DNA of 58,466 nt from a virus (IMGVR_UViG_3300018914_000069:1-58466); one strand, 5' to 3'; counted from the first letter of the stretch, positions 15,822-56,877 are shown. A program made the numbers and translations. Notes: a model not told the origin generated them from the sequence alone.

Positions 15822-16101
15822 AGAACACTTTGAAAGAAATATATGAGGAAATAAATACAGTAGAACTGTTGCAATTGAAGGTTAAACGTTAAAGGTTAAA
15901 CCTCCTAATGTCATAATAATATTTGCTACGGAAATAAACAATCTTTTTCTACCAGAAACTAGTATGAAAAGAAAGCAAACTGGGAATAATATAACCACAA
16001 TTTATTTCAAAGGAACAGCATAAAACTAGAATTTAATTCAAATATGTATCCAAGACTGTCAGTAGGGGAGAAGGATACCTACTGACACTGTTAGGTACAT
16101 A

Positions 16102-17067
16102 TTATGCAAATGCGTCATCGAGTTCATCGTCCGTTTCTTTGACAATATAGATCTTAGTTGTCTCGGACGATTCGTGTCCAAGCAGAGCCTGAGCTGATTC
16201 AATGTTTTTGCCGCTTAGTACAAGATGAGTCGCTCGGGTGGATCTCAATTGGTGAGGGTGCACACGTCTTCCGACTATCTCACTGAAAATTTCCGAACAC
16301 CAATAATTAAAGGTGGTTGGATTGACTTGATTTACTTTGCCATCTTTTGTCTTTTTTACAAACACATATGGACAATCATCTTCACCACGAACCTCTAGCC
16401 ATTTTTTTATTGCTTGCATTGCGGTTTCGTCAAATACCAATTTTCTTATCTTACCTTGCTTTGACCTTCCCTTACACCTAATGTTATGAGTGAGGTAATA
16501 AGACTTATCCTTAACCTTTTCGTAATTCGCAACTTCCTTTAGTAGCTGACGTACCTCTTCACGTCTCGCCCCAGAAGAATAGGAAAAATGAATATACGCA
16601 AGCATTTGCCACTCTTCCCGTTCCTCAAGTGTCCTAATTAGATGTCGCAACTCTTCCTCACTTAATGGCTTTTTCTCATTCCTTAATGCTTTCGGAGGAT
16701 TAGGAATCTGTTTGTTATAGATATTTCTGAATAGGGGATAGTCCTCGCCATAATATAACTCAACGTAACCGCAGAGACTGGAAACAACCGAACGCTTTAA
16801 TTTGACAGCACTTGAAGACAATCCACGAGCAAGTAGAAAGTTTTGATACTTCAATGCGTCTCTAGCTTTAAGTTCGTAAATTGGTTTATTCATACACTGA
16901 TCGTGAACGAAACGGAAAAATTGGCGTAAACCCGATTTATATTGCATTAGAGTTTTGTCGGATAAATGTTGCTGTTGCAAGAACTCTTCCGTAATGTCTC
17001 GATTAAATTTATGTACTAAACTCCATTCTTCATCAGTGACCTCTGGCAATTTTTCAAATCTCATCAA
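16102..17067 (-). CDS. yomM: Tyrosine recombinase in the tail operon (SPbeta YomM-like)
   Basis: Intact catalytic set SGARREE, HPHQLR, LLGHES, TTKIY; same position as SPbeta yomM. Confidence 0.85.
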   Translation of the reverse strand: MMRFEKLPEVTDEEWSLVHKFNRDITEEFLQQQHLSDKTLMQYKSGLRQFFRFVHDQCMNKPIYELKARDALKYQNFLLARGLSSSAVKLKRSVVSSLCGYVELYYGEDYPLFRNIYNKQIPNPPKALRNEKKPLSEEELRHLIRTLEEREEWQMLAYIHFSYSSGARREEVRQLLKEVANYEKVKDKSYYLTHNIRCKGRSKQGKIRKLVFDETAMQAIKKWLEVRGEDDCPYVFVKKTKDGKVNQVNPTTFNYWCSEIFSEIVGRRVHPHQLRSTRATHLVLSGKNIESAQALLGHESSETTKIYIVKETDDELDDAFA

Positions 17068-18015: not shown

Positions 18016-18103
18016 AATTTCCCTCCCAGAAATTTTTAAATGAAACCTGTATTTTATAAAAATAGGGTAGAGATTAACTTCTCTACCCTATTAATTTTAT
18101 TTA

Positions 18104-29728: not shown

Positions 29729-29924
29729 TTCACACCTCCATTAAAAAGAGAATAGGGAAGAGGGAGGGGAGGACTACCTCTTATCAGATTTCTCCTATCC
29801 CTACTCAGGCATAAAAAAATGCCTATACTGGGTTTGAGGAGAAGGGGAACTCGTCAAACCCAGTTAGACAGCTCTTTATAAATAGGGGAGAGGGGACTAT
29901 ATGAAATTAATATTTCATGAGGAA

Positions 29925-32150: not shown

Positions 32151-32196
32151 TTCAAAATTCCTCCCTAATTTTGAATGAAATTGTCTTTTTATGTAT

Positions 32197-34859: not shown

Positions 34860-35184
34860 CCTGAATACCCTCGGTTTCCCGATATTTAAATAGGGGAGTA
34901 GACCATATCATCAACTATTAGGGGAAATAGTTGGTCAGCGCTTCGCAATACAGGATTTCACTGTAAAGCTACTTCCATTAGGAATGGTCGTTGCACCTTC
35001 AAGGATACAATGATCCGAGCTTGGCACAGGATTATCATATCGACTTTTGACTTAGACTTCCCCTGTTAGCACTATCATTAACAAGCCATTTCCTGCTTGA
35101 AGCTAATCGCTGATAGCACACCCTAGATTTCTAGGTTCACTGACTTTTCATTCGCACATCGCTGCGCGAAGCGACTATAATTTA
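34860..35184 (-). ncRNA. Group I self-splicing intron (325 nt, ORF-less)
   Basis: 5' splice site after GAU with U.G wobble (CGAU/GUCG), terminal omega G at 34860, P AACAGGGGA, Q AAUCCUGUG, P7 GACCA/UGGUC (R GCAACGACCAU, S GAUAUGGUCUA), P10 UAUG/UAUA. Confidence 0.9.
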
Positions 35185-37128
35185 ATCGATCACGTAGTTA
35201 TTTTCCATACATAACCACTTAATTACGTCCAAATTCACGTTCCCACTGTTCCAAATCTTAGTGATGTTATTGGAGATAATACCAATGTTACCCCCTGTGT
35301 AGGCAGCTTTAAGACCTTGATAAATTGCCTGATTGCTTATAATGTCTTTACCCGCAGTTGCCATATTGTAATACAATGGCACAATATCTGTCATGTTTCT
35401 TTCTGCAACTTTTATGATAGTGGGATCTGCACAAACAAGACTTTTATCTCCATCGTTGTCGAACATGAGGATTTTGCTTATTGGATCATGTACACTGGTG
35501 TACAGTCCGTTTGTAATGAACCATCTGCCTTTTTCTTTATCCACTACATTTGTCCTTACCGCATGCTCCAAGTAAAGGTGAGGACTCCGTAAACAGTCCA
35601 ATTTTGGCATGTTCTTATAAAGTCTACATGATACCTCTCCGTTTGCCAAAAGACCGCTAGGTTGCTTTTCACCGAGTATCAACCACTGGCAGAAGGCGTA
35701 AAGATCAGGACATATAAAAGTGTACTTTCCTTCAACGTCAATCTTTCCTGCTCTTGCTTCCTTAACCATGCTCCTTTTGACATTTTTCAATATTTCCTTG
35801 CTATATGTATCGCTTAGTAACTCAGGATATATCTCCAATGCTTGTTGAAGATAGTTCTTATACTTATTCGACTCAACTACACCAAGAACTTTTAGCATTG
35901 TTTTTTTGTCTTTACCGATATTCATAATACTTGAGATGGTGCTTTTACAAATTTCACTTATCTCATCATCAGTCATATCGGTTAAAGTTTGTAACATCTG
36001 ATAATTTAACTTAGCATTGGCAGGTAGATCTTCTTCCTCATTACATTTTCCTGCTTGGCAATTATATTTCTTGAACTTTTCTTTATAGGCATCCCAATCA
36101 GAGTAGTACTTCCACATTTTAAATTGACTCTTGGTGAGAATGATTTCGATTCCATCCTTCAATAAATCATGCTGCTTTCCATAAATGTCAGTGACAATAC
36201 CGCATTTTATATCACTGTTTCTATTATGCTCTCGGATGAACTTATCAAAGGGGAAGGGGACAAGTAACCCTTTAATCCAAGGTAGCCTAATCATCATGCT
36301 TTTCTTTGATTTTCTAGGGAGAATCATCCCGCACCCGTCAGTGTGATTAATAAGAATGTCCATTTCCTTACGAGTTATTTCGTAATTCTTTTCGTCAATG
36401 AAATCAACAACGCTGCGTACTGTAGTCTCCATATCATCAACTACAATGACTTTATCAATGTCAAAATCTGTCCACGGATCAGTTGCAGAGTTGCACAAGG
36501 CGAGATAGGCAAGGTATTTATTAATATTAACCCCACCTTGCTTGTTGATGTCATCCACTGACAATCCGCAAGTTAAAGAATTTTGATGTTTGTTCAGTAC
36601 ACTTTCTTTAATAAAAACGGTTTTCTTAGTACGAATTTGCCCTGCACTTGCCGTAAAACAAACGTACTTTTCACCTTTGAACATGAATCCGTTAAGAATA
36701 ATGTCTTCAAGAATATTAAAGAAATAAGTTTGAACTACAATGAGGTCTTCAGAGAAAGTATCTTGTTTAATTCCCAGAGTTCTTGTCAATACAGAATCAA
36801 ATACAGATATCACATGCTTTTTTCCTATTTTCGATTCATTTAGTGTTCTAATCTCAGTATTGTTTGCAAATTCAGCGTACAGTAAATCCTTTAGTTTCTT
36901 GATACGTTTATTAATGCTTGTAAAGTGTCTTTCTAGCTTAAGTCCGAAGGCAGCCGATATGTTCTTTTTATTGCGTAATTTTTTTACATGGTTTTTAAAC
37001 CTATAAGCCTTATTCAATTTATTATGTATCTTGTTTTCTTTTTCATTGTAAAAGAAGCTGGTGTCTACACTATAAATATGTACTTGTTTATCCAAACTAA
37101 TTACGATTCCCTCCGTCTCCATCTTCAA
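35185..37128 (-). CDS. yonO: YonO-type single-subunit DNA-dependent RNA polymerase, exon 1
   Basis: TASAGQIR, HTDGCG, RLPWIKG, LNYQMLQTL, RSPH, catalytic FDNDGD, GNIG; splices to give about 872 aa. Confidence 0.92.
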
Positions 37129-37804: not shown

Positions 37805-38827
37805 ATGCTGGCAAATGTATCAGAGTTGCATGTCAATACGGTTTTCAATGATGTTGAGACTTTTTTCAATGAAGAGTTACGATCCGACAATACCAGAAGA
37901 GCGTACCGAAATGACATTGAATCTTTCTTTAAATACATGAGAAATAAAAATATTAATGAGCTTACATACACCGGAAAGAAAGGTGAGGGCTGCGACTTAT
38001 GGTTCGAGTATAAGGACATTCTTCGGTATCGGAGTTATCTAAAAAAAATCTACCCTAAAAGTGCCACAGTAGAGCGCAAAATTGCATCGGTCAGAAAGCT
38101 ATACAAATACTTTGCAAAAAACAACTACAATATTAATCCTCATGCGTTTGAACTGGAATGGGAAGATGAGGACGATACAGACAGTGTAGGAGTACTCTCA
38201 GTACAAGAAGCGATCACAATGGTCGAGTTAGCAAAAGAACTGCCAAATGGTGAGGAAAAATCTCTGATAATTGAACTAGCGTATATGACATCCATTCGTA
38301 TTTCCGCAATTTTAAACATCACATGGGATAAATTTCGCTTTATCGGTAACGATCTATGGGAAATCAAAATTAAAGATAAAGGGAAGAAAAATAAAAAGCC
38401 CATCTTTGACGAAACATATCAACGCCTATATAAGGCAATGAAAAGAGCAGGAGAAGAAAAGGTTTTTACATTATCCTATACAACCATTTATGACACCATA
38501 AAGGAACTTGCAAAGCGAATGGGGATTTCTGAGGAGCGAAAAATAAGTCCGCACAGTCTCAAAAAAACTATGATCAATTGGACATTAGACCAACTTAAAG
38601 ATGTTTTGTTAGCAGCTAAACAAGGCAATCACTCACTAGATGTAATGATGAAGAATTATGTTAGTCAAAATCCCGACTACTCTAACTATCCATTGATGCT
38701 AATGAAGAAGGGCAATGACATCACGCCCCTCATGGAATTAAGCAAAGAAGAATTGATTGCATTGATACAGAGAGCGAGCTTCGGTACACAAAATGAATTG
38801 CTTTCTTTACTAAAACAAGAGAAGTAA
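37805..38827 (+). CDS. Tyrosine-recombinase-fold protein (YopP/MrpR-like), HxxR changed to HSLK
   Basis: SAM-like N-domain (NTRRAYRND), SIRISA, SPHSLKK, GNHS, KNY. Confidence 0.75.
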   Translation: MLANVSELHVNTVFNDVETFFNEELRSDNTRRAYRNDIESFFKYMRNKNINELTYTGKKGEGCDLWFEYKDILRYRSYLKKIYPKSATVERKIASVRKLYKYFAKNNYNINPHAFELEWEDEDDTDSVGVLSVQEAITMVELAKELPNGEEKSLIIELAYMTSIRISAILNITWDKFRFIGNDLWEIKIKDKGKKNKKPIFDETYQRLYKAMKRAGEEKVFTLSYTTIYDTIKELAKRMGISEERKISPHSLKKTMINWTLDQLKDVLLAAKQGNHSLDVMMKNYVSQNPDYSNYPLMLMKKGNDITPLMELSKEELIALIQRASFGTQNELLSLLKQEK

Positions 38828-47184: not shown

Positions 47185-47261
47185 TCATGATAAAAGCGGT
47201 CTTTGATTAGCATTATCCTTTAGGATATAATAAAATTTATAAATGAGCGGAGGCGGTTACG

Positions 47262-47447
47262 GTGAAAGTTAGACAACAAAATGCGAATGGTGAATGGATT
47301 GAACATGAGGTAAAAATCTCTAATGATCTCGAAACAGAAAGACAAAAGTTAATCAGCGAAATAAACGCATTTAAAAAGGATGTAGCAAAGAAATATGGTA
47401 AGGATGGCTTAAGTAAAGTAAACAACGCATTGAAAGGCTCATTCTAA
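47262..47447 (+). CDS. Hypothetical early protein
   Basis: GGAGG RBS and downstream terminator. Confidence 0.55.
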   Translation: MKVRQQNANGEWIEHEVKISNDLETERQKLISEINAFKKDVAKKYGKDGLSKVNNALKGSF

Positions 47448-47544
47448 TATACGCAAAAAGCCAGTACAAAACTGGTTTTCTTTTTTCCTAATCAAATCGG
47501 CTTTATTAGAAGTAAATACATATGATGAAAAGGAGCGGGTCAAT

Positions 47545-47733
47545 GTGAATGAAATTAAATTTGTAGAGTTTTTAACTGACTTATTATACAATGATGAATC
47601 GGGAATCGTTCGTACAGTAGGCACTTATGAAGATTTCATGGTTATGACACACAACAATGGATTAGTCGTTAAACTTGGTGACGGATCAGAGTTCCAGCTA
47701 ACTGTTGTGCAAACTAAAGAAGCAAAGGAGTAG
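47545..47733 (+). CDS. Conserved small phage protein
   Basis: VMTHNNGLVVKLGDGSEFQLTVVQ motif; RBS and terminator. Confidence 0.6.
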   Translation: MNEIKFVEFLTDLLYNDESGIVRTVGTYEDFMVMTHNNGLVVKLGDGSEFQLTVVQTKEAKE

Positions 47734-47879
47734 ACCAGTCGAATGACTGGTCTTTTTGTTTTCCAGTCATTGCAGATTTATATAAATATATAAATAAAAA
47801 TAATAAAAACTAATTGACATTTATTTGTATCTCCTGTATAATAAAGATATAAAATAAATGATACGGAGATGATACATAA

Positions 47880-48089
47880 ATGGCAACTGAAAAACAAATC
47901 GCATACTTTGAAGCACTGGCGAAACAATGGGAGCAACGCAACGGATCGGCAAAATTTCAAGGAAGAAAACAAACTGAGCGGGCAACAGGTGGGATGATTC
48001 AATCAGTAAGGAGAGCAATTGAAGATGGAGAAATCAGTAAGACAGTAATCTCAATGGCAATCGATACACTGAAGAAAGAGCTTCAATAA
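47880..48089 (+). CDS. Hypothetical early protein
   Basis: Consensus TTGACA-17-TATAAT promoter at 47814-47842; starts MATEKQIAY. Confidence 0.6.
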   Translation: MATEKQIAYFEALAKQWEQRNGSAKFQGRKQTERATGGMIQSVRRAIEDGEISKTVISMAIDTLKKELQ

Positions 48090-48226
48090 GAGGCTCTTTC
48101 TTTTACTAATCAAATCGGTTTTTTATTGCAAGTTTAATAAACAAAAAAATATAATAAACATGTTGCAATAACTTGCTATATCCCTTATAATATAATCAAG
48201 AAGCAAATACATAGGAGGCGATTAGG

Positions 48227-48427
48227 ATGAAACAAATAAAGATTCTTTCCACAATTAGTTTATCCCTTACTGTTGACAAGGTATATGAAGTAATCAACGA
48301 GGATAGCTGGACGGATGAAGATCCAGAAGGCAATAAATATACAGTAAAATCTGTCAAAGTAATTGACGATGATGGAGACGAATACGCTATAGTGAACTTT
48401 GATGAAGCTGAATATGTATACGTTTAA
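48227..48427 (+). CDS. Small acidic early protein
   Basis: Own promoter, AGGAGG RBS and terminator. Confidence 0.6.
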   Translation: MKQIKILSTISLSLTVDKVYEVINEDSWTDEDPEGNKYTVKSVKVIDDDGDEYAIVNFDEAEYVYV

Positions 48428-48575
48428 GAAGCCAAAAAGTGGCTTCTTTTCATTTCTGAATCAAAGAATGTTTTAGTTCGATTTTTATAAACCAAAAATA
48501 AAACAATACTGTTGCTTAGTATAGTGAAATCCTATATACTGGAATTAAGGAACAAAAGCATAGGAGGCGGTTTGA

Positions 48576-48962
48576 ATGTCACAAATTTACATCCTGAAAA
48601 ATGGTTTCCCTGTCACGATCCCATACAGAAAGAATCTTGAAAAATCGGCGAATATGGGCAGCATGTTTGCTCAGGATATTGAGCCAACAGGCGACTATAT
48701 CAATTATCACGAAAAACAATGGGGCATTGACTTGCCTAATCATGTATACGGCACAATTACATTTTATAATCCGCTTGTTATTGAATGGGAAACGACTGGT
48801 CACGGGGGATGGAAAACAAAACTGTCTGAGCGTTTTGGAGGAAAAACCAAAAAGGCACTAACAAACGCAATTGTGAAAGCTGGATATGACGCAGTGATAA
48901 CTATAGACAGTAGTAGCGGCGAATTCATGGAAATAGTGAATATCAATGGAGTTAAATCATAA
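48576..48962 (+). CDS. Possible ART-PolyVal-like ADP-ribosyltransferase-fold protein
   Basis: TITFYNPLVI...AIVKAGYDAVI...EIV pattern; own promoter and terminator. Confidence 0.4.
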   Translation: MSQIYILKNGFPVTIPYRKNLEKSANMGSMFAQDIEPTGDYINYHEKQWGIDLPNHVYGTITFYNPLVIEWETTGHGGWKTKLSERFGGKTKKALTNAIVKAGYDAVITIDSSSGEFMEIVNINGVKS

Positions 48963-49077
48963 CCAGCAAATAGGCTGGTTTTTCATTTGACCAATATCCA
49001 TAAGTATAAAAATAAATTCAACCGTCAATAATTGACTAGTACATACTTCCCAGACTATACTATTTACATGCCATTTT

Positions 49078-49437
49078 ATGGAGGATGATCCAATGGAAGC
49101 AGTAACTTGTTTCAAGTGTGAGGGATCAGAATATTTGCCGCAGTACAAACATAAAGACGATGGAATCTGCTATCCGTGTAAGGGGACAGGGGAACTTAAG
49201 CGGGCTACAATTGAAAAGGCAGGAATACTGTTTGAATACATGGTCGCAAATGAACGTTCGACAAAAAAGGATCTGATAGTGAAGATTATACAACTCGTGA
49301 ACGAGAATGACGAATTAGAACGGGAATCACAACATGCCAAAAGGGATTTTGATTTTGAGACTGCATACTATTTTGATACGCAGATTGCAGAGAATATGAC
49401 CAAGATACACAAGCTGCGGAAAGAAGCTGGAATATAG
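49078..49437 (+). CDS. Zn-ribbon protein (CxxCxG repeats)
   Basis: CFKCEGS and CYPCKGTG. Confidence 0.55.
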   Translation: MEDDPMEAVTCFKCEGSEYLPQYKHKDDGICYPCKGTGELKRATIEKAGILFEYMVANERSTKKDLIVKIIQLVNENDELERESQHAKRDFDFETAYYFDTQIAENMTKIHKLRKEAGI

Positions 49438-49578
49438 AAGGCCATTGAGATGGCCTTTTTCTTTTTGTCCATTAGACGAGAAAACTTAAAAATAACAACC
49501 AAAAATAACTTGTAAACCATATCGAAACATGGTACAATAAGGACAGTTAAGGAATACATATTTCAGGAGGCGTTACAA

Positions 49579-49704
49579 ATGTCCGAAACAAAACTAAAAT
49601 TAGCTGAAAAATTCCTGATTGAATTTATCCAGAAAGGTGATTTATCGTCAGAAGACGAGCAAGCTCTTTTCGAAGCAATACGGGTATTAAAGGAAAATAC
49701 ATAA
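49579..49704 (+). CDS. Small protein (41 aa, not in the ORF track) ending at the hammerhead
   Basis: TTGTAA-17-TACAAT promoter, AGGAGG RBS, MSETKLKLAEKF... Confidence 0.6.
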   Translation: MSETKLKLAEKFLIEFIQKGDLSSEDEQALFEAIRVLKENT

Positions 49705-49768
49705 GCCACCTGACGAGCTAGTGAGAGTCTAGCGAAACGCCTAGAAATAGGCGTAGTGGTAAGTATTT
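49695..49768 (+). ncRNA. Type I hammerhead ribozyme
   Basis: Stem I GCCAC/GUGGU (plus AAAUAC/GUAUUU), core CUGACGA 49710-49716, stem II GCUAG/CUAGC, GAAA 49734-49737, stem III CGCCUA/UAGGCG, cleavage triplet GUA (cut after 49755). Confidence 0.92.
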
Positions 49769-49790
49769 AATTACAAGGAGGTATATACAT

Positions 49791-52241
49791 ATGAAATACC
49801 AAACGGGAACAATTGTAAAAATGGAAGGCTGCCCAAAGAAAGTGGATTGCGGAGTATTTGAGATTGACCGCCTTTGGAATGAAAACGAATCCGCATTTGT
49901 CTATAAGCTTAAAAAAGATGGTACACGTTCTAAAAACGGGCTTAATATCTTTAAAATTTCCCATATGGATAAGTACGGAAAGATTATCAATAGGGAAGAA
50001 CTTGCAAATGCCATTTCTCAAGTAAACAAGACACTTAAAGAAACTAAAGAAAATCAAACTATCTATACATATGTAGAAACAGACCGAAAAAAGCTGCAAA
50101 AAGGCGATTACATCAAAGTAGTTAAGCCTATTCATACAACGTCCAGCATTTACGCAATCCCAGCAGGAGCCATTTACACTATTTCCGCTTGTGAAGGTCA
50201 AAACGCTACAAGATACGTTTTAAAGCGTATCGGTAAAAAAGGGCAAGTATTAAGCGGTAACTCTGGAGCATTTAATATTGTTAGTTTTTCCGCTCAAACT
50301 GTAGAAAAACTGATTGCGGAAGGATATATCATCATTGTTGAGCAAGTACAGCAGATTAGAAAAGAAATGAGCCAACAACAAGAAGAACAACCAACAGCCG
50401 AACAGGTAACAGAACAAGCAGATAACCAAGCAGAAGCGCAAGAGGAGCCGACAAGCAACGAAACGAACACAGCAGAGCCAGTGAAAAAGCATCATGTCCA
50501 ATCTGTACAGGTGACACGTTTAGAGGGCTACAAATGGGATTGTAAGACGCTAACAGTCTCCACAATTGCAGAAGCTAACAAAGTCATTCAGGAAATGGCG
50601 TGGGCTGCGCCTTCTGATGGTTCGTATGACAAAACGCAATTTGTAATAACCTTTACAGATGAGAACACATATACAGGTAGAATTGACTTGCAATACAAAC
50701 ATACTAGCGGCTATGACTTAGAAAAGCATGTAATGAGACACATTAACTACATGATGGAACAGGGAACAGATGAACAAAAGGAACATGGCAGAGATTTCCT
50801 CAATAGGTATGTGCTTAGTGAGGAGCCTGTCAAAATTGAAGAAGTGAGAACAAAACCGCCTGCGCAAGCACAAGTAGAACAAGAACAGCAAGTCGAAATA
50901 ACAGGCACAACAGATGACAACGAGCTTCTTGTTCTGACTAATGAACAGTCCGCAGAGTTGGAAAAACGTTTCACAAACAACAAGGCAACCAAACAGGAAG
51001 AGGAACTATTAACCAAGTACCATTTGCAATTACAGGAACAGGCTATGAAATACAAGGCAACATTACCAAGCAACTATGAAGAATTGATTAATGATGAAAA
51101 CGTGTATAAAGTTCTTTCTTGCTTCCCTTCTGATGGTGGATCGGCTGGAGTGTATGAGATTGAAATAACAGGCAAGCAGTTAAAAGATGACTTATGGACT
51201 GGGGTATTTATTCTAAATATCATTACACCATTAGAAGAACAGCACGACACGACAGAAGAGTTTGAGGAGATTAGCAGCGAAGAGCAGACACAAGGAGAAC
51301 AAAGCGACACAGACAACGGAATAGCAGTTACAATTAATCAGGAATTACAGGGTATCGAAATTGCTTTTACTGAAAAGCCATTGCAAGAAGTCATCGTACA
51401 ACTAAAAACAAACGGTTTCCGCTGGTCTAAGTTTAAAAAAGTTTGGTATGCTAAACAAACAGGAAAAACACTTGCATTTGTTCAATGTTTGACAGGAGAA
51501 AAGGCGAACGACATCCATACAGAACAGGTAAAAACAGAGCAGCCTTATTCATATCCTGAAATTAATATTGATGATCTAGACCAATACACGGTTTCTGAAC
51601 AATTGCAAAGCCGCCTTAATTCTTCTTCCCTGTTTAATGTTGATTATCAGAAAGATTGTGAATTGACATTCCGAAACATTCAAAGCGAAGCTTTAGAAGT
51701 TCTTTCGCTAACAGATGATCCGCGTTTGACATATTACATAAAAAAATATGTACAATCATTTAAGCGGCGATATTATGAACAATACTTGAAAATACTTAAT
51801 CATAAAGCGTCTAACCCATCTTGGGCAGTTACTGGACGTGGTGGGATAAACGTAAGACGTTATAACAAAATGCAGGATAGATATGACAAATATCTTGGGG
51901 AATCAGTGAAACTGTCCGAAGAGTTTAAACGGAAGATGCAAGAATTCAAAAGGCAAATACGAGACGAAAAGCAGCGACAATGGCGCGAAAAAATGAATAT
52001 CAATCTAAGTGGAACAGAACTAAAAGAAATGTTTACAGTAGAGAAGAAACCTGTCACAGTGGCAGGATATACGGAAACAGTTAGGACATACAACTATAAC
52101 GGGTACACGATTGCAAAAACGTGGGGGATGTGGCGCATTTTTAAGAACGGAAAAGAGATTGATACAACACTCAAAACAACAGACACCCTAGACACGGCAA
52201 AAAGATATGTATTGATGCTCTGTGAGCAAGAATCTGCTTAA
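49791..52241 (+). CDS. Large polyvalent-type early protein (LPD25-like and DUF3560-associated-like domains)
   Basis: GSYDKTQFVITF...YTGRIDL; IEIAFTEKP...LKTNGFRWS....WY; PSWAVTGRGG; E/Q-rich linkers. Confidence 0.6.
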   Translation: MKYQTGTIVKMEGCPKKVDCGVFEIDRLWNENESAFVYKLKKDGTRSKNGLNIFKISHMDKYGKIINREELANAISQVNKTLKETKENQTIYTYVETDRKKLQKGDYIKVVKPIHTTSSIYAIPAGAIYTISACEGQNATRYVLKRIGKKGQVLSGNSGAFNIVSFSAQTVEKLIAEGYIIIVEQVQQIRKEMSQQQEEQPTAEQVTEQADNQAEAQEEPTSNETNTAEPVKKHHVQSVQVTRLEGYKWDCKTLTVSTIAEANKVIQEMAWAAPSDGSYDKTQFVITFTDENTYTGRIDLQYKHTSGYDLEKHVMRHINYMMEQGTDEQKEHGRDFLNRYVLSEEPVKIEEVRTKPPAQAQVEQEQQVEITGTTDDNELLVLTNEQSAELEKRFTNNKATKQEEELLTKYHLQLQEQAMKYKATLPSNYEELINDENVYKVLSCFPSDGGSAGVYEIEITGKQLKDDLWTGVFILNIITPLEEQHDTTEEFEEISSEEQTQGEQSDTDNGIAVTINQELQGIEIAFTEKPLQEVIVQLKTNGFRWSKFKKVWYAKQTGKTLAFVQCLTGEKANDIHTEQVKTEQPYSYPEINIDDLDQYTVSEQLQSRLNSSSLFNVDYQKDCELTFRNIQSEALEVLSLTDDPRLTYYIKKYVQSFKRRYYEQYLKILNHKASNPSWAVTGRGGINVRRYNKMQDRYDKYLGESVKLSEEFKRKMQEFKRQIRDEKQRQWREKMNINLSGTELKEMFTVEKKPVTVAGYTETVRTYNYNGYTIAKTWGMWRIFKNGKEIDTTLKTTDTLDTAKRYVLMLCEQESA

Positions 52242-52325
52242 CAACTAAAAATAATCATCCTGCCTTATCTTATAACGGGATAGGGCAGGATGACCCAAAT
52301 AACAGCATAACAGGGAGGGTTTCAA

Positions 52326-52478
52326 ATGACAGGAACAGCACACCGCATAGGAATTTTAGGTAAAGATCAATGGTCATATAATGGCAAGACAGGGGACGGC
52401 ATGGAAATTTATGAACACAAGGAACGAGGGTGGATCAACCTTTACAACCCAAAAACAGGAGAAATGATTGAAGACTGA
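52326..52478 (+). CDS. Small hypothetical protein (50 aa)
   Basis: GGGAGGG RBS; MTGTAHRIGIL... Confidence 0.5.
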   Translation: MTGTAHRIGILGKDQWSYNGKTGDGMEIYEHKERGWINLYNPKTGEMIED

Positions 52479-52613
52479 ATAACAGCAGCATAACAGAGGA
52501 GGTAATAAACATGCTAACGAAACGACAACAGGCAATCTTAGACATGCTTATTGCAATCTCAAAACAGGATAAACCCGTTAATACTAACCAAAGTAGAAAA
52601 GGAGCATAAACTC

Positions 52614-52913
52614 ATGAAAACAGTTTGTAAATATATCGTTTCATTGCTCATTGTGTGTGCTATCACTTTTTCAACGTCCAGCACGTTTGCATGTGGTGAC
52701 TATGCAGTATTCGTCTACAAGGTGACAAAGGTACAAAACGGGCAATACTGGGGAACTGGTGTTTACGATAACAGCAAAGTATATTTCATTCAGGATAATG
52801 TGATAACAGCCACTAAATTCAAAGTTGGTGATTTTGTGGTAGCTTACTTTGATCCTGATAACATAACAGATGGTCTTGTGGGTGTTGAAAAAGCGATTCC
52901 TGTAGGGAACTAA
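52614..52913 (+). CDS. Secreted/membrane small beta-barrel protein
   Basis: AAGGAG RBS before ATG at 52614; signal-peptide-like N-terminus. Confidence 0.5.
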   Translation: MKTVCKYIVSLLIVCAITFSTSSTFACGDYAVFVYKVTKVQNGQYWGTGVYDNSKVYFIQDNVITATKFKVGDFVVAYFDPDNITDGLVGVEKAIPVGN

Positions 52914-53194
52914 TAACAGAAGGTCGACAACAGAAAGGAGGAATAACAGATGCATGATGAGCGTTTTGATGAGACAATGGGACTGATAACAGCCGTAGTA
53001 GGTGGGATTCTGATTGTGTTGATTGTGTTAGCAGCAAACGCAATGGGAATTACATTGGATTAATAAATAAAAAATAGTTGTAAAGCGTATTGTGTTGGTA
53101 TATAATGGAATTAAGAACAGGATAACAGAACAGATACATAGCAACGATTTAAGATAGAAAAGAAACTAAATAACTTTATACGGGGGTACTTATA

Positions 53195-53497
53195 ATGACA
53201 GGATCAATGAACACTCGCAAGCAAGTTTCTACAGCTCGTAAAAAATCAATCAATGATTTAAAGAGCGGAAAATGGAAAAGGGAGTTTGATGAAGCGGTTT
53301 TGAAGTATCATGCAGAGAATGATCCTGAGATTAAAGAAAGTATTAAGTCCGCATTAGGATTCATGTCAACCACTTTTGGGATTAACAACTTTCCAGAATT
53401 AAAACAATATGCAAAAGAAAAGCTTGCTGAAATTGATAATAATGCAATTGAAAAGTTAACGCCTGCGGAGTTTGTAAAGCGCTGGAAAAATAAATGA
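53195..53497 (+). CDS. Hypothetical protein
   Basis: TTGTAA...TATAAT promoter; stop codon overlaps the junction motif. Confidence 0.55.
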   Translation: MTGSMNTRKQVSTARKKSINDLKSGKWKREFDEAVLKYHAENDPEIKESIKSALGFMSTTFGINNFPELKQYAKEKLAEIDNNAIEKLTPAEFVKRWKNK

Positions 53498-53532
53498 AAC
53501 TATATTTTTATGGGGAAAGGGTTGATTGATAA

Positions 53533-53787
53533 ATGGGTTATAATTACGATGAACAAATCCGAAAACAAGATGAGTTTTTAACGACGGTATTTAGAAACAT
53601 GACTGATATTCAGATGAAACAAATAAGTAAAGGCGTTAACAAACTGGTTGAAAAAGGCATTCTTAATAAAGAAGACTATGAAGATATTCATTCAGTGATT
53701 GTATGGAAGTCAATTAAAGGTTTTTACAATCTGGAGACACAACCAAGAGAAGAGTTATGGAAGCTTTTGAACGAAATTTGCAAATAA
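53533..53787 (+). CDS. Hypothetical protein
   Basis: RBS present; flanked by junction motifs. Confidence 0.55.
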   Translation: MGYNYDEQIRKQDEFLTTVFRNMTDIQMKQISKGVNKLVEKGILNKEDYEDIHSVIVWKSIKGFYNLETQPREELWKLLNEICK

Positions 53788-53817
53788 AATGATCCTTTTA
53801 ACGGGAGATGAAGTGTA

Positions 53818-53994
53818 ATGGAAAAAGTAACAACTGCAGAATATAGGAAAATTACAGCCGCATTTTGGAATCAGGTTGCTACTATGAGAGATAACGGAGT
53901 ATCAGATCAAGAAATCGAGAAATATAAATGGGAAATGTTTAAGAAGCTTGAAACAGAATATGAGGTTGTAGATCAGCAGGACACAAAATTCTAA
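53818..53994 (+). CDS. Hypothetical protein (58 aa, not in the ORF track)
   Basis: GGGAG RBS; MEKVTTAEYRK...; flanked by junction motifs. Confidence 0.55.
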   Translation: MEKVTTAEYRKITAAFWNQVATMRDNGVSDQEIEKYKWEMFKKLETEYEVVDQQDTKF

Positions 53995-54032
53995 TACAAT
54001 TGAGATTTTATTATAAATCTGGAGTGATAATC

Positions 54033-54209
54033 ATGAATAATATCATTTTAGAAACACCTCTCAAGGTAACTAATACAAAACATGGACGGTTGATTATGCT
54101 TCCACCAGTAAGAGAGGCTACTGAACAAGATAGAGTAAATTTACATCGACTTATAGCAAGATTACTATTTGAAGATTATCAAATGTTAATAGGAAATGGA
54201 AAGGTATAG
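54033..54209 (+). CDS. Hypothetical protein
   Basis: GGAGTGA RBS before ATG at 54033. Confidence 0.5.
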   Translation: MNNIILETPLKVTNTKHGRLIMLPPVREATEQDRVNLHRLIARLLFEDYQMLIGNGKV

Positions 54210-54226
54210 TTGAAAGAAGGGATATT

Positions 54227-54760
54227 ATGGAGAATGTTATTGCTCTATATAAAGAAGGGAAATCCCTACAATATATTTCAGAATTAAAAGGCGTATCTTT
54301 AGGGAAGGTGCAAAAAATAATAAAAAACCATGAAGATAAAGGCTTTCAACTATATAGGAAGAGCAGAAAGCAAGGGGAAAGTTACGAAGAGTTCCAAAGA
54401 AGATTTGAACAAGAAGAGCATGAAAAGTTAGTTATTGAGTTGTTTAATCATTATTCTACTAATGAAATTGCAGAAATGCTTAATCAGAGTCAATGGAATA
54501 TTTGGCAGATTGTACATAAACATACTTTTGATACTAAGAATATTGATAAATATATGAAATTACACTGTGAAACTGAGACAGATGAATTCAAATTAAAAGA
54601 AAGGAAATTGTTTTTTGAAACCTATTTGCTAGATGTATCAATGAAAGCTAATGGTATAGAGGATGATGTTGCATATAGGAATGCTTTCTTGTATTATCAA
54701 ACCAATATCGGCATACTCGCTAAAGAATGTAAAAGGGATATACTTCCTACTTTTAAATAA
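54227..54760 (+). CDS. HTH-domain protein
   Basis: LYKEGKSLQYISELKGVSLGKV and STNEIAEMLNQS HTH-like segments. Confidence 0.6.
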   Translation: MENVIALYKEGKSLQYISELKGVSLGKVQKIIKNHEDKGFQLYRKSRKQGESYEEFQRRFEQEEHEKLVIELFNHYSTNEIAEMLNQSQWNIWQIVHKHTFDTKNIDKYMKLHCETETDEFKLKERKLFFETYLLDVSMKANGIEDDVAYRNAFLYYQTNIGILAKECKRDILPTFK

Positions 54761-54791
54761 AAGTAAAATTTAATTGAAGGTGGTATAATAG

Positions 54792-55028
54792 ATGACAAAA
54801 CACGAACTTGCCAAGAAGATTCATGATATGCAACGGGGTGAGACGTTTGATTTCGAATTTGTCAATAAATATGGAGACTTGATTTATGCAGCAGCTACGC
54901 ACTTTAGATTCCATGACTTGGAAAGGGTTCTTGTCTCAGCCTATGGAAGAAACGAATATGATCTGTTAATTACTGAATTTGATAACGTAAAGGATATTGA
55001 GGAGAAACTGGATTTTATCGTAAGTTAA
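54792..55028 (+). CDS. Hypothetical protein
   Basis: ORF with RBS; converges on the 55041-55061 hairpin. Confidence 0.5.
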   Translation: MTKHELAKKIHDMQRGETFDFEFVNKYGDLIYAAATHFRFHDLERVLVSAYGRNEYDLLITEFDNVKDIEEKLDFIVS

Positions 55029-55060
55029 ATAATAAGTAAAACCTCCCAGCACAGGGGAGG

Positions 55061-55336
55061 TCACACTTTAGCAGTTTTATCTCTATAACTCATGATTCCT
55101 AGATAAGCAATTTCTAATTTACCATCTAAGTAATTCGTTGGATTGTAGGCTACAATTTCCCCATGCTCAATCTCCTGTAACCTTAAATCAACGAGAAAAC
55201 CAGCAACTCTAGCCAAGTGATCTACAACGTCCAGTAATTCATGTGATTGATAAGTTCCGTAGGTAGTAGCTGCTACTTGAAGTTCACTCAACTTCTTGTG
55301 TAAGCCTTTGAGATAATCATAATCTAATTGCTTCAT
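55061..55336 (-). CDS. Hypothetical protein (lone minus-strand gene)
   Basis: AAGGGA RBS; shares a bidirectional hairpin with the previous gene. Confidence 0.5.
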   Translation of the reverse strand: MKQLDYDYLKGLHKKLSELQVAATTYGTYQSHELLDVVDHLARVAGFLVDLRLQEIEHGEIVAYNPTNYLDGKLEIAYLGIMSYRDKTAKV

Positions 55337-55413
55337 GTGGCTTCATTCCCTTCGGTTTATTGAACACGTTATAACAGAGTATGTATAGTAAATTAAGACT
55401 AGAACAGTTTTTT

Positions 55414-55487
55414 GGATCTGTAGCTCAAAGGATGAGCAGGCGGCTCATAACCGCTAGGTCTTGGTTCGATTCCAAGCAGATCCACCA
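55414..55487 (+). tRNA. tRNA with CAT anticodon, most like tRNA-Ile2 (lysidine type, reads AUA)
   Basis: Acceptor GGATCTG/CAGATCC, anticodon arm GGCGG-CTCATAA-CCGCT, T-loop TTCGATT, encoded CCA. Confidence 0.9.
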
Positions 55488-55488
55488 T

Positions 55489-55564
55489 GCGCCTGTAGCT
55501 CAGCGGATAGAGCAATCGCCTTCTAAGCGATGTGTCAGGGGTTCAAATCCCTTCAGGCGCACCA
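55489..55564 (+). tRNA. tRNA-Arg(TCT)
   Basis: Acceptor GCGCCTG/CAGGCGC, anticodon loop CTTCTAA, T-loop TTCAAAT, encoded CCA. Confidence 0.95.
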
Positions 55565-55583
55565 TACATATTAAAATTAGGAT

Positions 55584-55769
55584 GTGATAACAGTGGACAT
55601 TGTTCCTGATGGGGTCGGTAGCTGCTTGTATCATGGAATATCAAAGAAAATAGAGTGGATTAACAACTGCATGGATTGGCATAGGGAAGACTCAAAAACA
55701 AATCCAAAATTGCTTAACCGAGATCTGAAAGACATTGAAGAAGCGATTGGGTTTAAAACTATCATGTAA
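55584..55769 (+). CDS. Hypothetical protein
   Basis: ORF after the tRNAs; start uncertain. Confidence 0.35.
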   Translation: MITVDIVPDGVGSCLYHGISKKIEWINNCMDWHREDSKTNPKLLNRDLKDIEEAIGFKTIM

Positions 55770-55785
55770 CAAGAGGTGACACATC

Positions 55786-56199
55786 ATGTCTCATGAAATT
55801 GGCTCTTCTCTATGGTATAGAGAGCAAGTTGACAATATGGAGAAGATGGAGTTTGAAAAAGAAGTCGCCTATAGACATGAATTACTCGAAACATGTAACA
55901 ACAGGATTAAATTTAAACTTTCCGAAGGTATGATAGTAAGAATCCAAGCGTTCAAAGATTGGTATGACATAAAGGGAAGAAAATACAAGGGAGTTATTGA
56001 ACGCATAGATCATTGGACAGGGCTTCCACATCATTGGTTTGTTGAATTGAGACAAGGAAATAGGTTACTGAATTTCAGTGCAATATCAATTGGAGAAATT
56101 GAGATCTTGGCAGAAAAACAGGAGCCGCGTCGGGAGGATGATATGATTCTTCACAGCAAGTTCATTTATGATAAAGATAATCACAAATTTTATCATTGA
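55786..56199 (+). CDS. Hypothetical protein
   Basis: GAGGTGA RBS. Confidence 0.55.
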   Translation: MSHEIGSSLWYREQVDNMEKMEFEKEVAYRHELLETCNNRIKFKLSEGMIVRIQAFKDWYDIKGRKYKGVIERIDHWTGLPHHWFVELRQGNRLLNFSAISIGEIEILAEKQEPRREDDMILHSKFIYDKDNHKFYH

Positions 56200-56212
56200 G
56201 GAGTGACAATTG

Positions 56213-56377
56213 ATGGATGTTGCTTTTATAGCAGGCATTATGATGAATACTGAACGAAAAGTAAAACAAGGATGGACGTTCACATGGAAATGTGGCGTCT
56301 TAAATGCTACGCATGATCAATTAGGTGAGGTTAAGCTGGAGACAGATGAGCAAATTAGAAAATGGTTAATTCAATAA
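56213..56377 (+). CDS. Hypothetical protein (54 aa, not in the ORF track)
   Basis: AGGAG RBS; stop overlaps the junction motif. Confidence 0.5.
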   Translation: MDVAFIAGIMMNTERKVKQGWTFTWKCGVLNATHDQLGEVKLETDEQIRKWLIQ

Positions 56378-56410
56378 ATGCATAGATTTATCGAGAAAGG
56401 ATGAAAAGTC

Positions 56411-56593
56411 ATGATTATTTATTTGGTATATGATCGAAAATGGGAAGACAAAGATATTCTATATGTCGGTACTGAGGAGTCCATAGCTACAGTTATTTTC
56501 CAAAATGGAGATCATAACAGATTCATTGAATCATGGACTAATGGACAACGGATTAGTTGGACTCAGGGTGACTACAAGAGTAAAATTGTATAA
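56411..56593 (+). CDS. Hypothetical protein
   Basis: AAAGGA RBS; flanked by junction motifs. Confidence 0.55.
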   Translation: MIIYLVYDRKWEDKDILYVGTEESIATVIFQNGDHNRFIESWTNGQRISWTQGDYKSKIV

Positions 56594-56634
56594 CTGAATT
56601 AAAGTCTGAATTTATGGGGAGAGACAGAGTTTAT

Positions 56635-56787
56635 ATGTATTTTTTTAAATTTTCTGATGGCAAAAAGCTATACATTGAAGCTGACAATGTACTTGAAGCA
56701 ATGAAAAGTGTTGAGGAAAAGTGGTATAAAGGTATATTTGATAAATGTGATTTTGAAGTAATGCATGTTACTGGAGCATCATACTAA
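56635..56787 (+). CDS. Hypothetical protein (50 aa, not in the ORF track)
   Basis: GGGGAG RBS; flanked by junction motifs. Confidence 0.45.
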   Translation: MYFFKFSDGKKLYIEADNVLEAMKSVEEKWYKGIFDKCDFEVMHVTGASY

Positions 56788-56877
56788 ACCAAATAAAAGA
56801 GACATTTCATGAGAGACTTTGCAGCATAAAGCAAAGTCTTTTTGCTTGAATAGCACAATAACCCATGACATAATATA

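Follow-up and report, generated by a model that had tools for sequence, protein, structure and literature searches.

A 28-bp dyad with the layout of Xer recombination sites recurs at gene seams, and at a share of mosaic junctions, in SPbeta-like phages

What is the short inverted repeat that sits at one gene junction after another in IMGVR_UViG_3300018914_000069, and what might it do there? This stretch of viral DNA (the window, analysed over its whole length of 58,466 bases) is a provirus record estimated to be 44% complete. Its minus strand carries, at 35182-37128, the gene for a YonO-type single-chain RNA polymerase (Pfam RdRP match; 58% identity to SPbeta YonO), and the other genes of the window include those for ClpP, a PhoH/PIN protein, a RecD-like helicase and two proteins of the Phage_integrase family (Pfam matches). 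Because of the YonO-type polymerase and this accompanying gene set, we take the window to be part of an SPbeta-like phage. The closest relative to hand, hereafter G001, is an IMG/VR record of 136,134 bases, identical to contig_13 of the Brevibacillus gelatini DSM 100115 assembly. A model reading of the sequence (the original prediction) had described the repeat, ATNAAA-N6-TTTNAT, as the possible site of an integron-like cassette system or, alternatively, as the operator of an MrpR-like repressor. We find that it is the conserved core of a longer dyad, that it recurs throughout SPbeta-like phages, and that some of the junctions between exchanged blocks in these phages fall inside it.

The window holds 10 exact copies of the motif where 0.93 would be expected, and 100 dinucleotide shuffles yielded at most 6, which confirms the enrichment that the original prediction had proposed as a check. 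All the site coordinates it gave, including those of the copies in the late operon, hold in the sequence, and one further exact copy lies at 309. When the same half-sites were set at spacings from 0 to 30, 10 occurrences were found at spacing 6 and 0-3 at every other spacing. In an unbiased scan that took in every hexamer arm with a single free position and spacings of 0-14, ATNAAA at spacing 6 came out as the top dyad of the window (z 9.9; runner-up 4.2). The same dyad ranks first in G001 and in Psychrobacillus phage Perkons; in SPbeta the first place goes to TAAAA-N6-TTTTA (34 sites, compared with 1.7 at other spacings).

Exact sites were counted in further phages, with the motif pattern read backwards as the control:
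G001: 35 exact sites (control 2)
phi3T: 17 exact sites (control 4)
SPR: 15 exact sites (control 4)
Goe11: 17 exact sites (control 3)
Psychrobacillus phage Perkons: 42 exact sites (control 4)
Clostridium phage D-1873 contig: 9 exact sites (control 5), a small excess

In SPbeta itself, spacing 6 accounts for 14 sites and other spacings for 1-6, and 13 of the 14 read exactly ATAAAA-N6-TTTTAT. The pattern TAAAA-N6-TTTTA gives 33, 40, 35 and 31 sites in SPbetaL1, SPbetaL4, SPbetaL8 and Goe14, with controls of 0-2. The free position of the core shifts with the phage lineage (A, A/G or A/C/G), and the sites are spread over the whole genome rather than clustered in a single array next to an integrase gene. 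Of the 48 sites in the B. gelatini genome, 35 lie on the 136-kb phage contig and 13 in the ~4.46 Mb elsewhere; the chromosomes of other hosts show a modest excess over the control or none. Little or no whole-genome excess was found in five more YonO-bearing genomes (35/24, 53/47, 122/62, 46/21 and 54/29 sites/control), one of which, Virgibacillus halotolerans, has 10 listed sites at 405,663-524,355 on the contig of its yonO locus. The motif is a family-wide element of SPbeta-like phages, present in ~15-40 copies per complete genome, mostly in short intergenic gaps.

Such a pattern might follow from a high AT content and from frequent codons (ATG-AAA at starts, TAA at stops), given that the arms do hold stop and start triplets and that the window count with one mismatch allowed stands weakly above shuffled sequence (28 against 18.0, a count of 28 being reached by 3 of 100 shuffles). 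However, the peak at spacing 6 is present in seven genomes, the control patterns in these phages number 0-5, and the motif is missing from other AT-rich Bacillus phages: the unrelated B. subtilis phages SPO1, SPP1 and phi105 hold 0, 0 and 1 sites. The spacing scans refute this explanation, to which we assign next to no probability.

Folded frequency tables, built from 54 SPbeta-group, 42 Perkons and 45 window and G001 sites, reveal 11-bp arms on either side of the 6-bp spacer. In the SPbeta-group set, whose 54 sites are all distinct, T-Y-T-R-R-ATAAAA is obtained from the left halves and again, independently, from the reverse complements of the right halves, with a weak T/G preference at the first spacer base, and the other two sets follow the same extended-arm trend. 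The inner parts of the arms are conserved and palindromic, the outer parts are looser and the centre is variable. The site is, in full, a dyad of 11 + 6 + 11 = 28 bp, of which the 18-bp motif is the conserved core, and the tyrosine-recombinase geometry first ascribed to it is borne out. So is its placement for most sites: the dyad overlaps or closely follows a stop codon, with the next ribosome-binding site (RBS) a short way downstream. In three genomes, 42 of 59 sites lie in short same-strand gaps, 9 lie between divergent or convergent genes and 8 fall inside crude calls of open reading frames (ORFs). The upstream stop codon usually occupies site positions 2-4 (A-TAA-AA or A-TGA-AA) or directly precedes the site, the RBS stands right behind the right arm, and the next start codon follows 11-31 nt past the site.

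A position between the stop codon and the next RBS of transcribed operons would also suit a signal read in the polycistronic RNA, either a hairpin that couples translation or a processing site. Yet the free arm positions N and N' are able to pair in 25 of 59 sites, complementarity between the arms of a site is not above that of shuffled partners (163 against 165.5, 97 against 92.1 and 90 against 99.2), and four of six window sites have no predicted RNA fold. The consensus is symmetric in both halves irrespective of gene strand, and sites also occur after terminators and between divergent genes. Since there is no covariation and little RNA fold, the symmetry points to two copies of a protein half-site on duplex DNA rather than to a hairpin. 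The hairpin is ruled out on these grounds, and RNA-level explanations in general are largely refuted and, in our estimate, highly improbable. A promoter for YonO was likewise discarded, because the site is symmetric and the late genes are reported as one operon transcribed from a single start upstream of yonK (PMC5467207).

Do these sites coincide with the places where phage genomes have been joined? Among SPbeta, phi3T, SPR and Goe11, 17 of 305 distinct block starts lie at offsets -1 to +3 from the first base of a site (~0.8 expected), and 13 of 309 block ends lie at site offsets 14-20 (~1.0 expected), the expectations being derived from the density of termini in intergenic DNA. When eight SPbeta sites were aligned, unrelated flanking sequence was seen to abut the 18-bp core, with core, spacer and the other flank unchanged. 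Intergenic gaps of eight SPbeta-group genomes were then classed by their motif content and by whether they hold a junction, with results given below as odds ratios (OR); because these genomes are close relatives, the p-values overstate independence:
Gaps with an exact site: junctions in 35 of 51, OR 5.4 against gaps without motif
Gaps with a one-mismatch site: junctions in 51 of 85, OR 3.7 against gaps without motif
Gaps without the motif: junctions in 162 of 561, the reference
Pooled motif gaps: junctions in 86 of 136, OR 4.2, p 3e-13
Gap length 60-120: OR 3.1, p 3e-4
Gap length 120-400: OR 2.4, p 0.013
Gap length 10-60: 4 of 16 against 50 of 306, not significant
Each genome separately: OR 3.8-4.8
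Control, the same arms at wrong spacings: OR 1.6, p 0.11

To locate the exchange point, sites from eight SPbeta-group genomes were paired wherever their spacers are the same. Both flanks are homologous in 387 of these pairs, only the left in 116, only the right in 152 and neither in 335. In the one-sided pairs, the spacer and the arm next to the homologous flank match as well as they do in orthologous pairs. On the junction side, the outer five bases of the arm show 2.0-2.3 differences, against 0.15-0.29 in orthologous and 3.25 in random pairs, and the inner six bases 0.35-0.43, against 0.02-0.10 and 0.92. Single cases show the same transition. The site at SPbeta 86885 has its left arm, spacer and the following TTT in common with phi3T, the remaining right arm being already different, and at SPbeta 113663 the spacer-adjacent base differs in SPR. 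Exchange has thus taken place within the 28 bp, at the border of one arm with the spacer, which is where Xer-type enzymes cut (PMC5357621). Of the original question, whether breakpoints of gene gain and loss fall in the spacer, one part is answered in its favour: homology breakpoints in SPbeta-group phages fall at the motif far beyond chance and inside the site; their position is at the arm/spacer border, however, and not in mid-spacer. Crude clustering yields at least 56 left-side and at least 45 right-side junction events in 80 spacer families, and one hot spot, at SPbeta 83687, has five unrelated left flanks in the eight phages compared. As a separate observation, the SPbeta sites at 113663 and 132746 have different spacers, each then followed by a near-identical 28-nt leader and RBS; at 132746, the leader and RBS form a short island kept in SPR and Goe11, with different genes on either side.

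The sites of the window are as follows:
309-326: exact match overlapping a gene start; possibly the single copy expected by chance
16020-16037: exact dyad, 64 nt downstream of the YomM-like recombinase gene, past a terminator-like hairpin
18040-18057: exact dyad between two minus-strand late genes, immediately upstream of the RBS
29901-29918: exact dyad immediately past the stop of the ClpP-like gene
32175-32192: exact dyad immediately past the stop of the PhoH/PIN gene; orthologous site in G001 (121411)
47190-47207: exact dyad after a small gene, overlapping a 7-codon mini-ORF
47491-47508: degenerate copy with three mismatches in the right arm, in a degenerate form of a ~130-nt module
48109-48126: exact dyad after a terminator, in the first part of the repeated ~130-nt module (terminator, site, promoter)
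48460-48477: one-mismatch site in a degenerate copy of the ~130-nt module
53494-53511: exact dyad with the stop codon TGA at site positions 2-4 and the RBS directly after
53784-53801: one-mismatch site with the stop codon TAA at site positions 2-4
53994-54011: one-mismatch site directly behind a stop codon
54757-54774: exact dyad with the stop codon TAA at site positions 2-4
56374-56391: two-mismatch copy (ATAAAT/ATTTAT) on a stop codon
56598-56615: one-mismatch site in the order stop, site, RBS
56793-56810: exact dyad after the last gene of the run, ahead of a terminator

Between the site at 32175 and its orthologue in G001, the arms are kept and three of the six spacer bases differ. An 18-mer identical to 54757-54774, spacer included, occurs at G001 93278-93295 between unrelated genes, with different gene content around it, and could be either a chance match (estimated at a few per cent) or a travelling site. 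The mini-ORF at 47187-47210 (ATG ... TAG) has a good RBS ahead of it and could be fortuitous or encode a leader peptide. The ~130-nt module (48091-48232) consists of a terminator, the dyad site, an A-rich stretch and a TTGCAA-17-TATAAT promoter; it matches three places in G001 at 74-77% identity, has three degenerate occurrences in the window (the 47491 and 48460 regions included) and may be a repeated early-promoter unit. In the accessory region (46-57 kb), 4 of 26 ORFs have a protein match in G001, and a megablast search of the region against the phage collection gave no match. The region also holds neighbouring genes for tRNA-Met (CAT) and tRNA-Arg (TCT) at 55414-55564, in a stretch kept in G001 too, and its biggest gene, an 816-amino-acid ORF at 49791-52241 with no Pfam family and 69% identity in G001.

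Which protein might read the dyad? The original prediction pointed to two proteins of the tyrosine-recombinase family, and both genes are confirmed by Pfam (Phage_integrase):
16102-17067, minus strand: candidate enzyme, a YomM-like tyrosine recombinase of the Xer type in which no catalytic residue is missing
37805-38827, plus strand: YopP (SroD)-like recombinase-fold protein with the Tyr kept and the second Arg replaced by Lys; candidate binder

The first protein matches XerC-like, XerA and XerD structures (best E 3.4e-17), keeps the complete R-K-H-R-H-Y set (first Arg, Lys, HxxR, His, Tyr) and is an orthologue of SPbeta YomM at 33.5% identity. Orthologues of YomM were found in SPbeta, phi3T, Perkons and another contig of the B. 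gelatini genome (L119), whose protein also has all six catalytic residues. An exact site lies at most 85 nt downstream of the yomM-like gene in the window, in B. gelatini and in Perkons, and 400 nt away in SPbeta; in Perkons it stands 14 nt past the stop codon, and contig L119 has the same arrangement as the window. A terminator-like hairpin between the gene and the dyad is kept in both (window 16038-16101; L119 2412-2489). The second protein is an orthologue of YopP, with 24.8% identity to that of SPbeta and 62% to that of G001. YopP-like proteins are present in all four lineages, and no solved relative was found by sequence. A ~40-kb YonO island of low GC content in Paenibacillus oralis (~6.33-6.37 Mb) shows no excess of the dyad and lacks genes of the YomM and YopP types. 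Because this island is only ~40 kb, YonO travels in smaller elements as well; as a single case, the island is too little to link the motif to YomM or YopP. In the literature, a search on yomM, YopP and SroD returned Yersinia papers only, and no mention of the motif was found in the covered part of the SPbeta literature, outside which lie the 1999 genome paper, the 2023 sro operon paper and the supplements, so that a published SroD/SroE motif could have escaped. Palindromes are annotated in the SPbeta record, and they differ in sequence from the dyad.

Tentatively, and as close to an even call, we read the site as one that promotes the exchange of gene blocks and is targeted by an Xer-like recombinase-fold protein of the phage, either the YomM-like or the YopP-like one. 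A recombinase-fold dimer is favoured because the layout equals that of dif and of plasmid dif (pdif) sites, the latter also standing at the edges of exchangeable modules. A dimer of the phage-encoded protein would bind the 28-bp dyad, the binder being the YomM-like recombinase (16102-17067) or, failing that, the YopP/SroD-like protein (37805-38827). Strand exchange at the arm/spacer border would then join gene blocks from different phages, with the sites acting as fixed seams for modular gene exchange. The near-unique spacers would hold down recombination between different sites of one genome. If exchange took place on one side only and replication or a junction resolvase finished it, one partner would keep the spacer, which is the pattern observed. 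That one of these proteins binds the site, that it cuts there and that recombination is the selected function is what we infer. A bolder proposal, possible but held with less assurance, is that SPbeta-like phages own a genome-wide site-specific system, in which an Xer-like recombinase would act on ~15-40 dif-like sites, each with a spacer of its own and set at a seam between genes, to swap blocks between related phages at fixed points.

Several findings weigh against exchange directed by these sites. For the window lineage, the one relative available, G001, is too diverged (~70-80% nucleotide identity, 15 short matches), so that breakpoint mapping failed there and the breakpoint evidence is that of the SPbeta group, where the junction statistics pool kin. 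In that group, ~10% of the edges of replaced segments are at the motif (27 of 274), most mosaic junctions lying elsewhere; 27 of 137 replaced segments have one edge at the motif and none has both. A shared block with a site at either end was seen twice among 414 rows of high-scoring segment pairs, once between SPbeta (83687-86899) and phi3T, at 99.97% identity, and once between SPbeta (92392-92768) and SPR. Of 26 simple indels in four genomes of the SPbeta group, 7 carry the motif at one end and none at both. The claim that one-gene units are captured or shuffled in the manner of integron cassettes is thus not supported by the 26 indels, nor were two-site gene modules moving as units, of the plasmid-dif type, found among the 137 segments or the 26 indels. 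No minus-strand blocks, as inversions between sites would leave, were found among the four genomes. In three laboratory hybrids of phi3Ts and SPbeta, 13 parent switches took place with no need of the motif, 5 of them in long identical blocks (1.4-18 kb) that happen to start at sites and 8 in motif-free intervals of 29-87 nt. From these switches and the many edges away from the motif, it follows that ordinary homologous recombination dominates between close relatives. Moreover, because the arm cores are common to all sites, short-homology recombination in an arm would give the same junctions as enzymatic cleavage. As for the proteins, YomM of SPbeta and of Perkons carries Lys for the second catalytic Arg, YopP has the same replacement in three of four lineages with its Tyr kept, and the link of the site to either protein is circumstantial.

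The main rival reading is silencing of the stoperator kind, in which a repressor component made in the lysogen, the YopP/SroD-like protein or YopQ/SroE, binds the dyads and blocks read-through. The junctions would then be secondary: short-homology recombination falls at the site because it is the only sequence common to otherwise unrelated blocks, and ordinary homologous recombination, not site-targeted exchange, is what the laboratory hybrids display. Tens of sites per genome in short intergenic spaces, often on stop codons, recall phages L5 and Bxb1 (PMC3029335). SPbeta already employs a recombinase-fold repressor (PMC10516654; bioRxiv 10.1101/2025.11.27.690993), yopP is transcribed in the dormant prophage (bioRxiv 10.1101/2021.11.22.469490), and, as noted, YopP-like proteins occur in all four lineages. 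Known stoperators, however, are asymmetric and oriented with transcription, and a pure operator leaves unexplained both the junction excess in motif gaps and the joining of one site to up to five unrelated flanks. We judge silencing of this kind unlikely, though it deserves serious attention. A host factor, such as the XerC/XerD of the host acting as on the pdif sites of Acinetobacter plasmids, would dispense with the phage proteins altogether. The dyad has the same 11 + 6 + 11 layout as host dif sites, and the pdif modules of plasmids are believed to rely on Xer proteins of the host (PMC6449649, PMC5357621). The near-background density of the motif in chromosomes (13 sites in ~4.46 Mb of B. 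gelatini against 35 in 136 kb) speaks against such a factor, as do its virtual absence from the three unrelated B. subtilis phages (0-1 sites) and the shift of the core consensus between phage lineages; we consider it improbable.

The MrpR operator proposed as an alternative in the original prediction is not supported in the form given there. The SPbeta repeated element (SPBRE), located by a seeded scan upstream of ten named SPbeta genes, is an asymmetric sequence different from the dyad and coexists with it in SPbeta. SPBRE resembles the dyad in being a repeated element of the same phage family, with a recombinase-fold protein as its binder; it differs in sequence, in its asymmetry, in its length of ~24 bp, in being read by a monomer (bioRxiv 10.1101/2025.11.27.690993) and in its location at ten promoters. 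Chromatin affinity purification sequencing of MrpR (SroF) gave ten peaks at promoters carrying SPBRE, none being reported at the dyad in the covered part of that paper (PMC10516654), a further point against stoperator-like silencing. In the SPbeta record (110881-111100), the start annotated for yorM has both an SPBRE copy (110911) and a dyad site (111028) downstream of it; an RBS follows the dyad, and the true start is probably downstream of 111046.

Among known systems, integron attC sites are like the dyad in that one site stands directly behind the stop codon of each gene, and in integrons the exchange is completed after a single strand exchange. attC acts as a folded single strand with little sequence conservation, whereas the sequence of the dyad is conserved without pairing or covariation, the opposite of attC, and the dyad shows neither a single array nor the one-gene indels of integron cassettes. 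T4-type phages have promoter-early stem-loops at module edges, proposed as guides of mosaic exchange, and these are not dyads of recombinase geometry. Nor are the boundary (linker) sequences of lambdoid phages, which are short, conserved, placed at module edges and likewise proposed to guide mosaic exchange (PMC3029335). The origin of the mosaic genomes of tailed phages is an old open question, for which boundary sequences have long been proposed and usually not found, being absent from most mosaic boundaries according to the covered part of the same source. Here, a conserved boundary site with recombinase geometry occurs in a phage family that includes SPbeta, the model phage of Bacillus subtilis 168, which makes the idea directly testable with existing strains, mutants and hybrids. 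If these phages do own such a recombination system, it would be an enzymatic version of the linker sequence proposed for phage mosaicism.

The stoperators of L5 and Bxb1, with 24 and 34 sites that are mostly intergenic and silence by blocking elongation, share with the dyad their tens of copies in short intergenic spaces genome-wide, often at stop codons (PMC3029335). They differ in being 13 bp long, asymmetric, oriented with transcription and bound by a helix-turn-helix repressor. If the dyad is a silencer instead, it would represent a second, symmetric operator class for recombinase-fold repression in arbitrium phages. Single-recombinase Xer systems (XerS/difSL, XerH/difH and archaeal XerA/dif) resemble the proposed system in build, with one recombinase, two similar arms and a site often beside the gene; the left arm of difH ends in ATGAAAA, near the dyad core (PMC5357621), and the best solved relatives of the YomM-like protein of the window are XerC-like and XerA proteins. 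These systems have one site per chromosome, for dimer resolution, whereas the phages have tens of sites with different spacers.

A further parallel in layout is with dif and the pdif sites of Acinetobacter plasmids. The dyad differs from them in its phage replicon, in being near-symmetric, with no distinct XerC and XerD arms, in the rarity of blocks bounded by two sites (2) and in the presence of an Xer-like gene of the phage's own, and recombination at the dyad is a proposal. Like the dyad, dif and pdif measure 28 bp, with two 11-bp arms whose inner parts are conserved and palindromic and whose outer parts are looser, around a variable 6-bp centre (PMC6449649) at which cleavage takes place (PMC5357621), and pdif sites too occur in many copies per replicon, at the edges of exchangeable gene blocks (PMC6449649).

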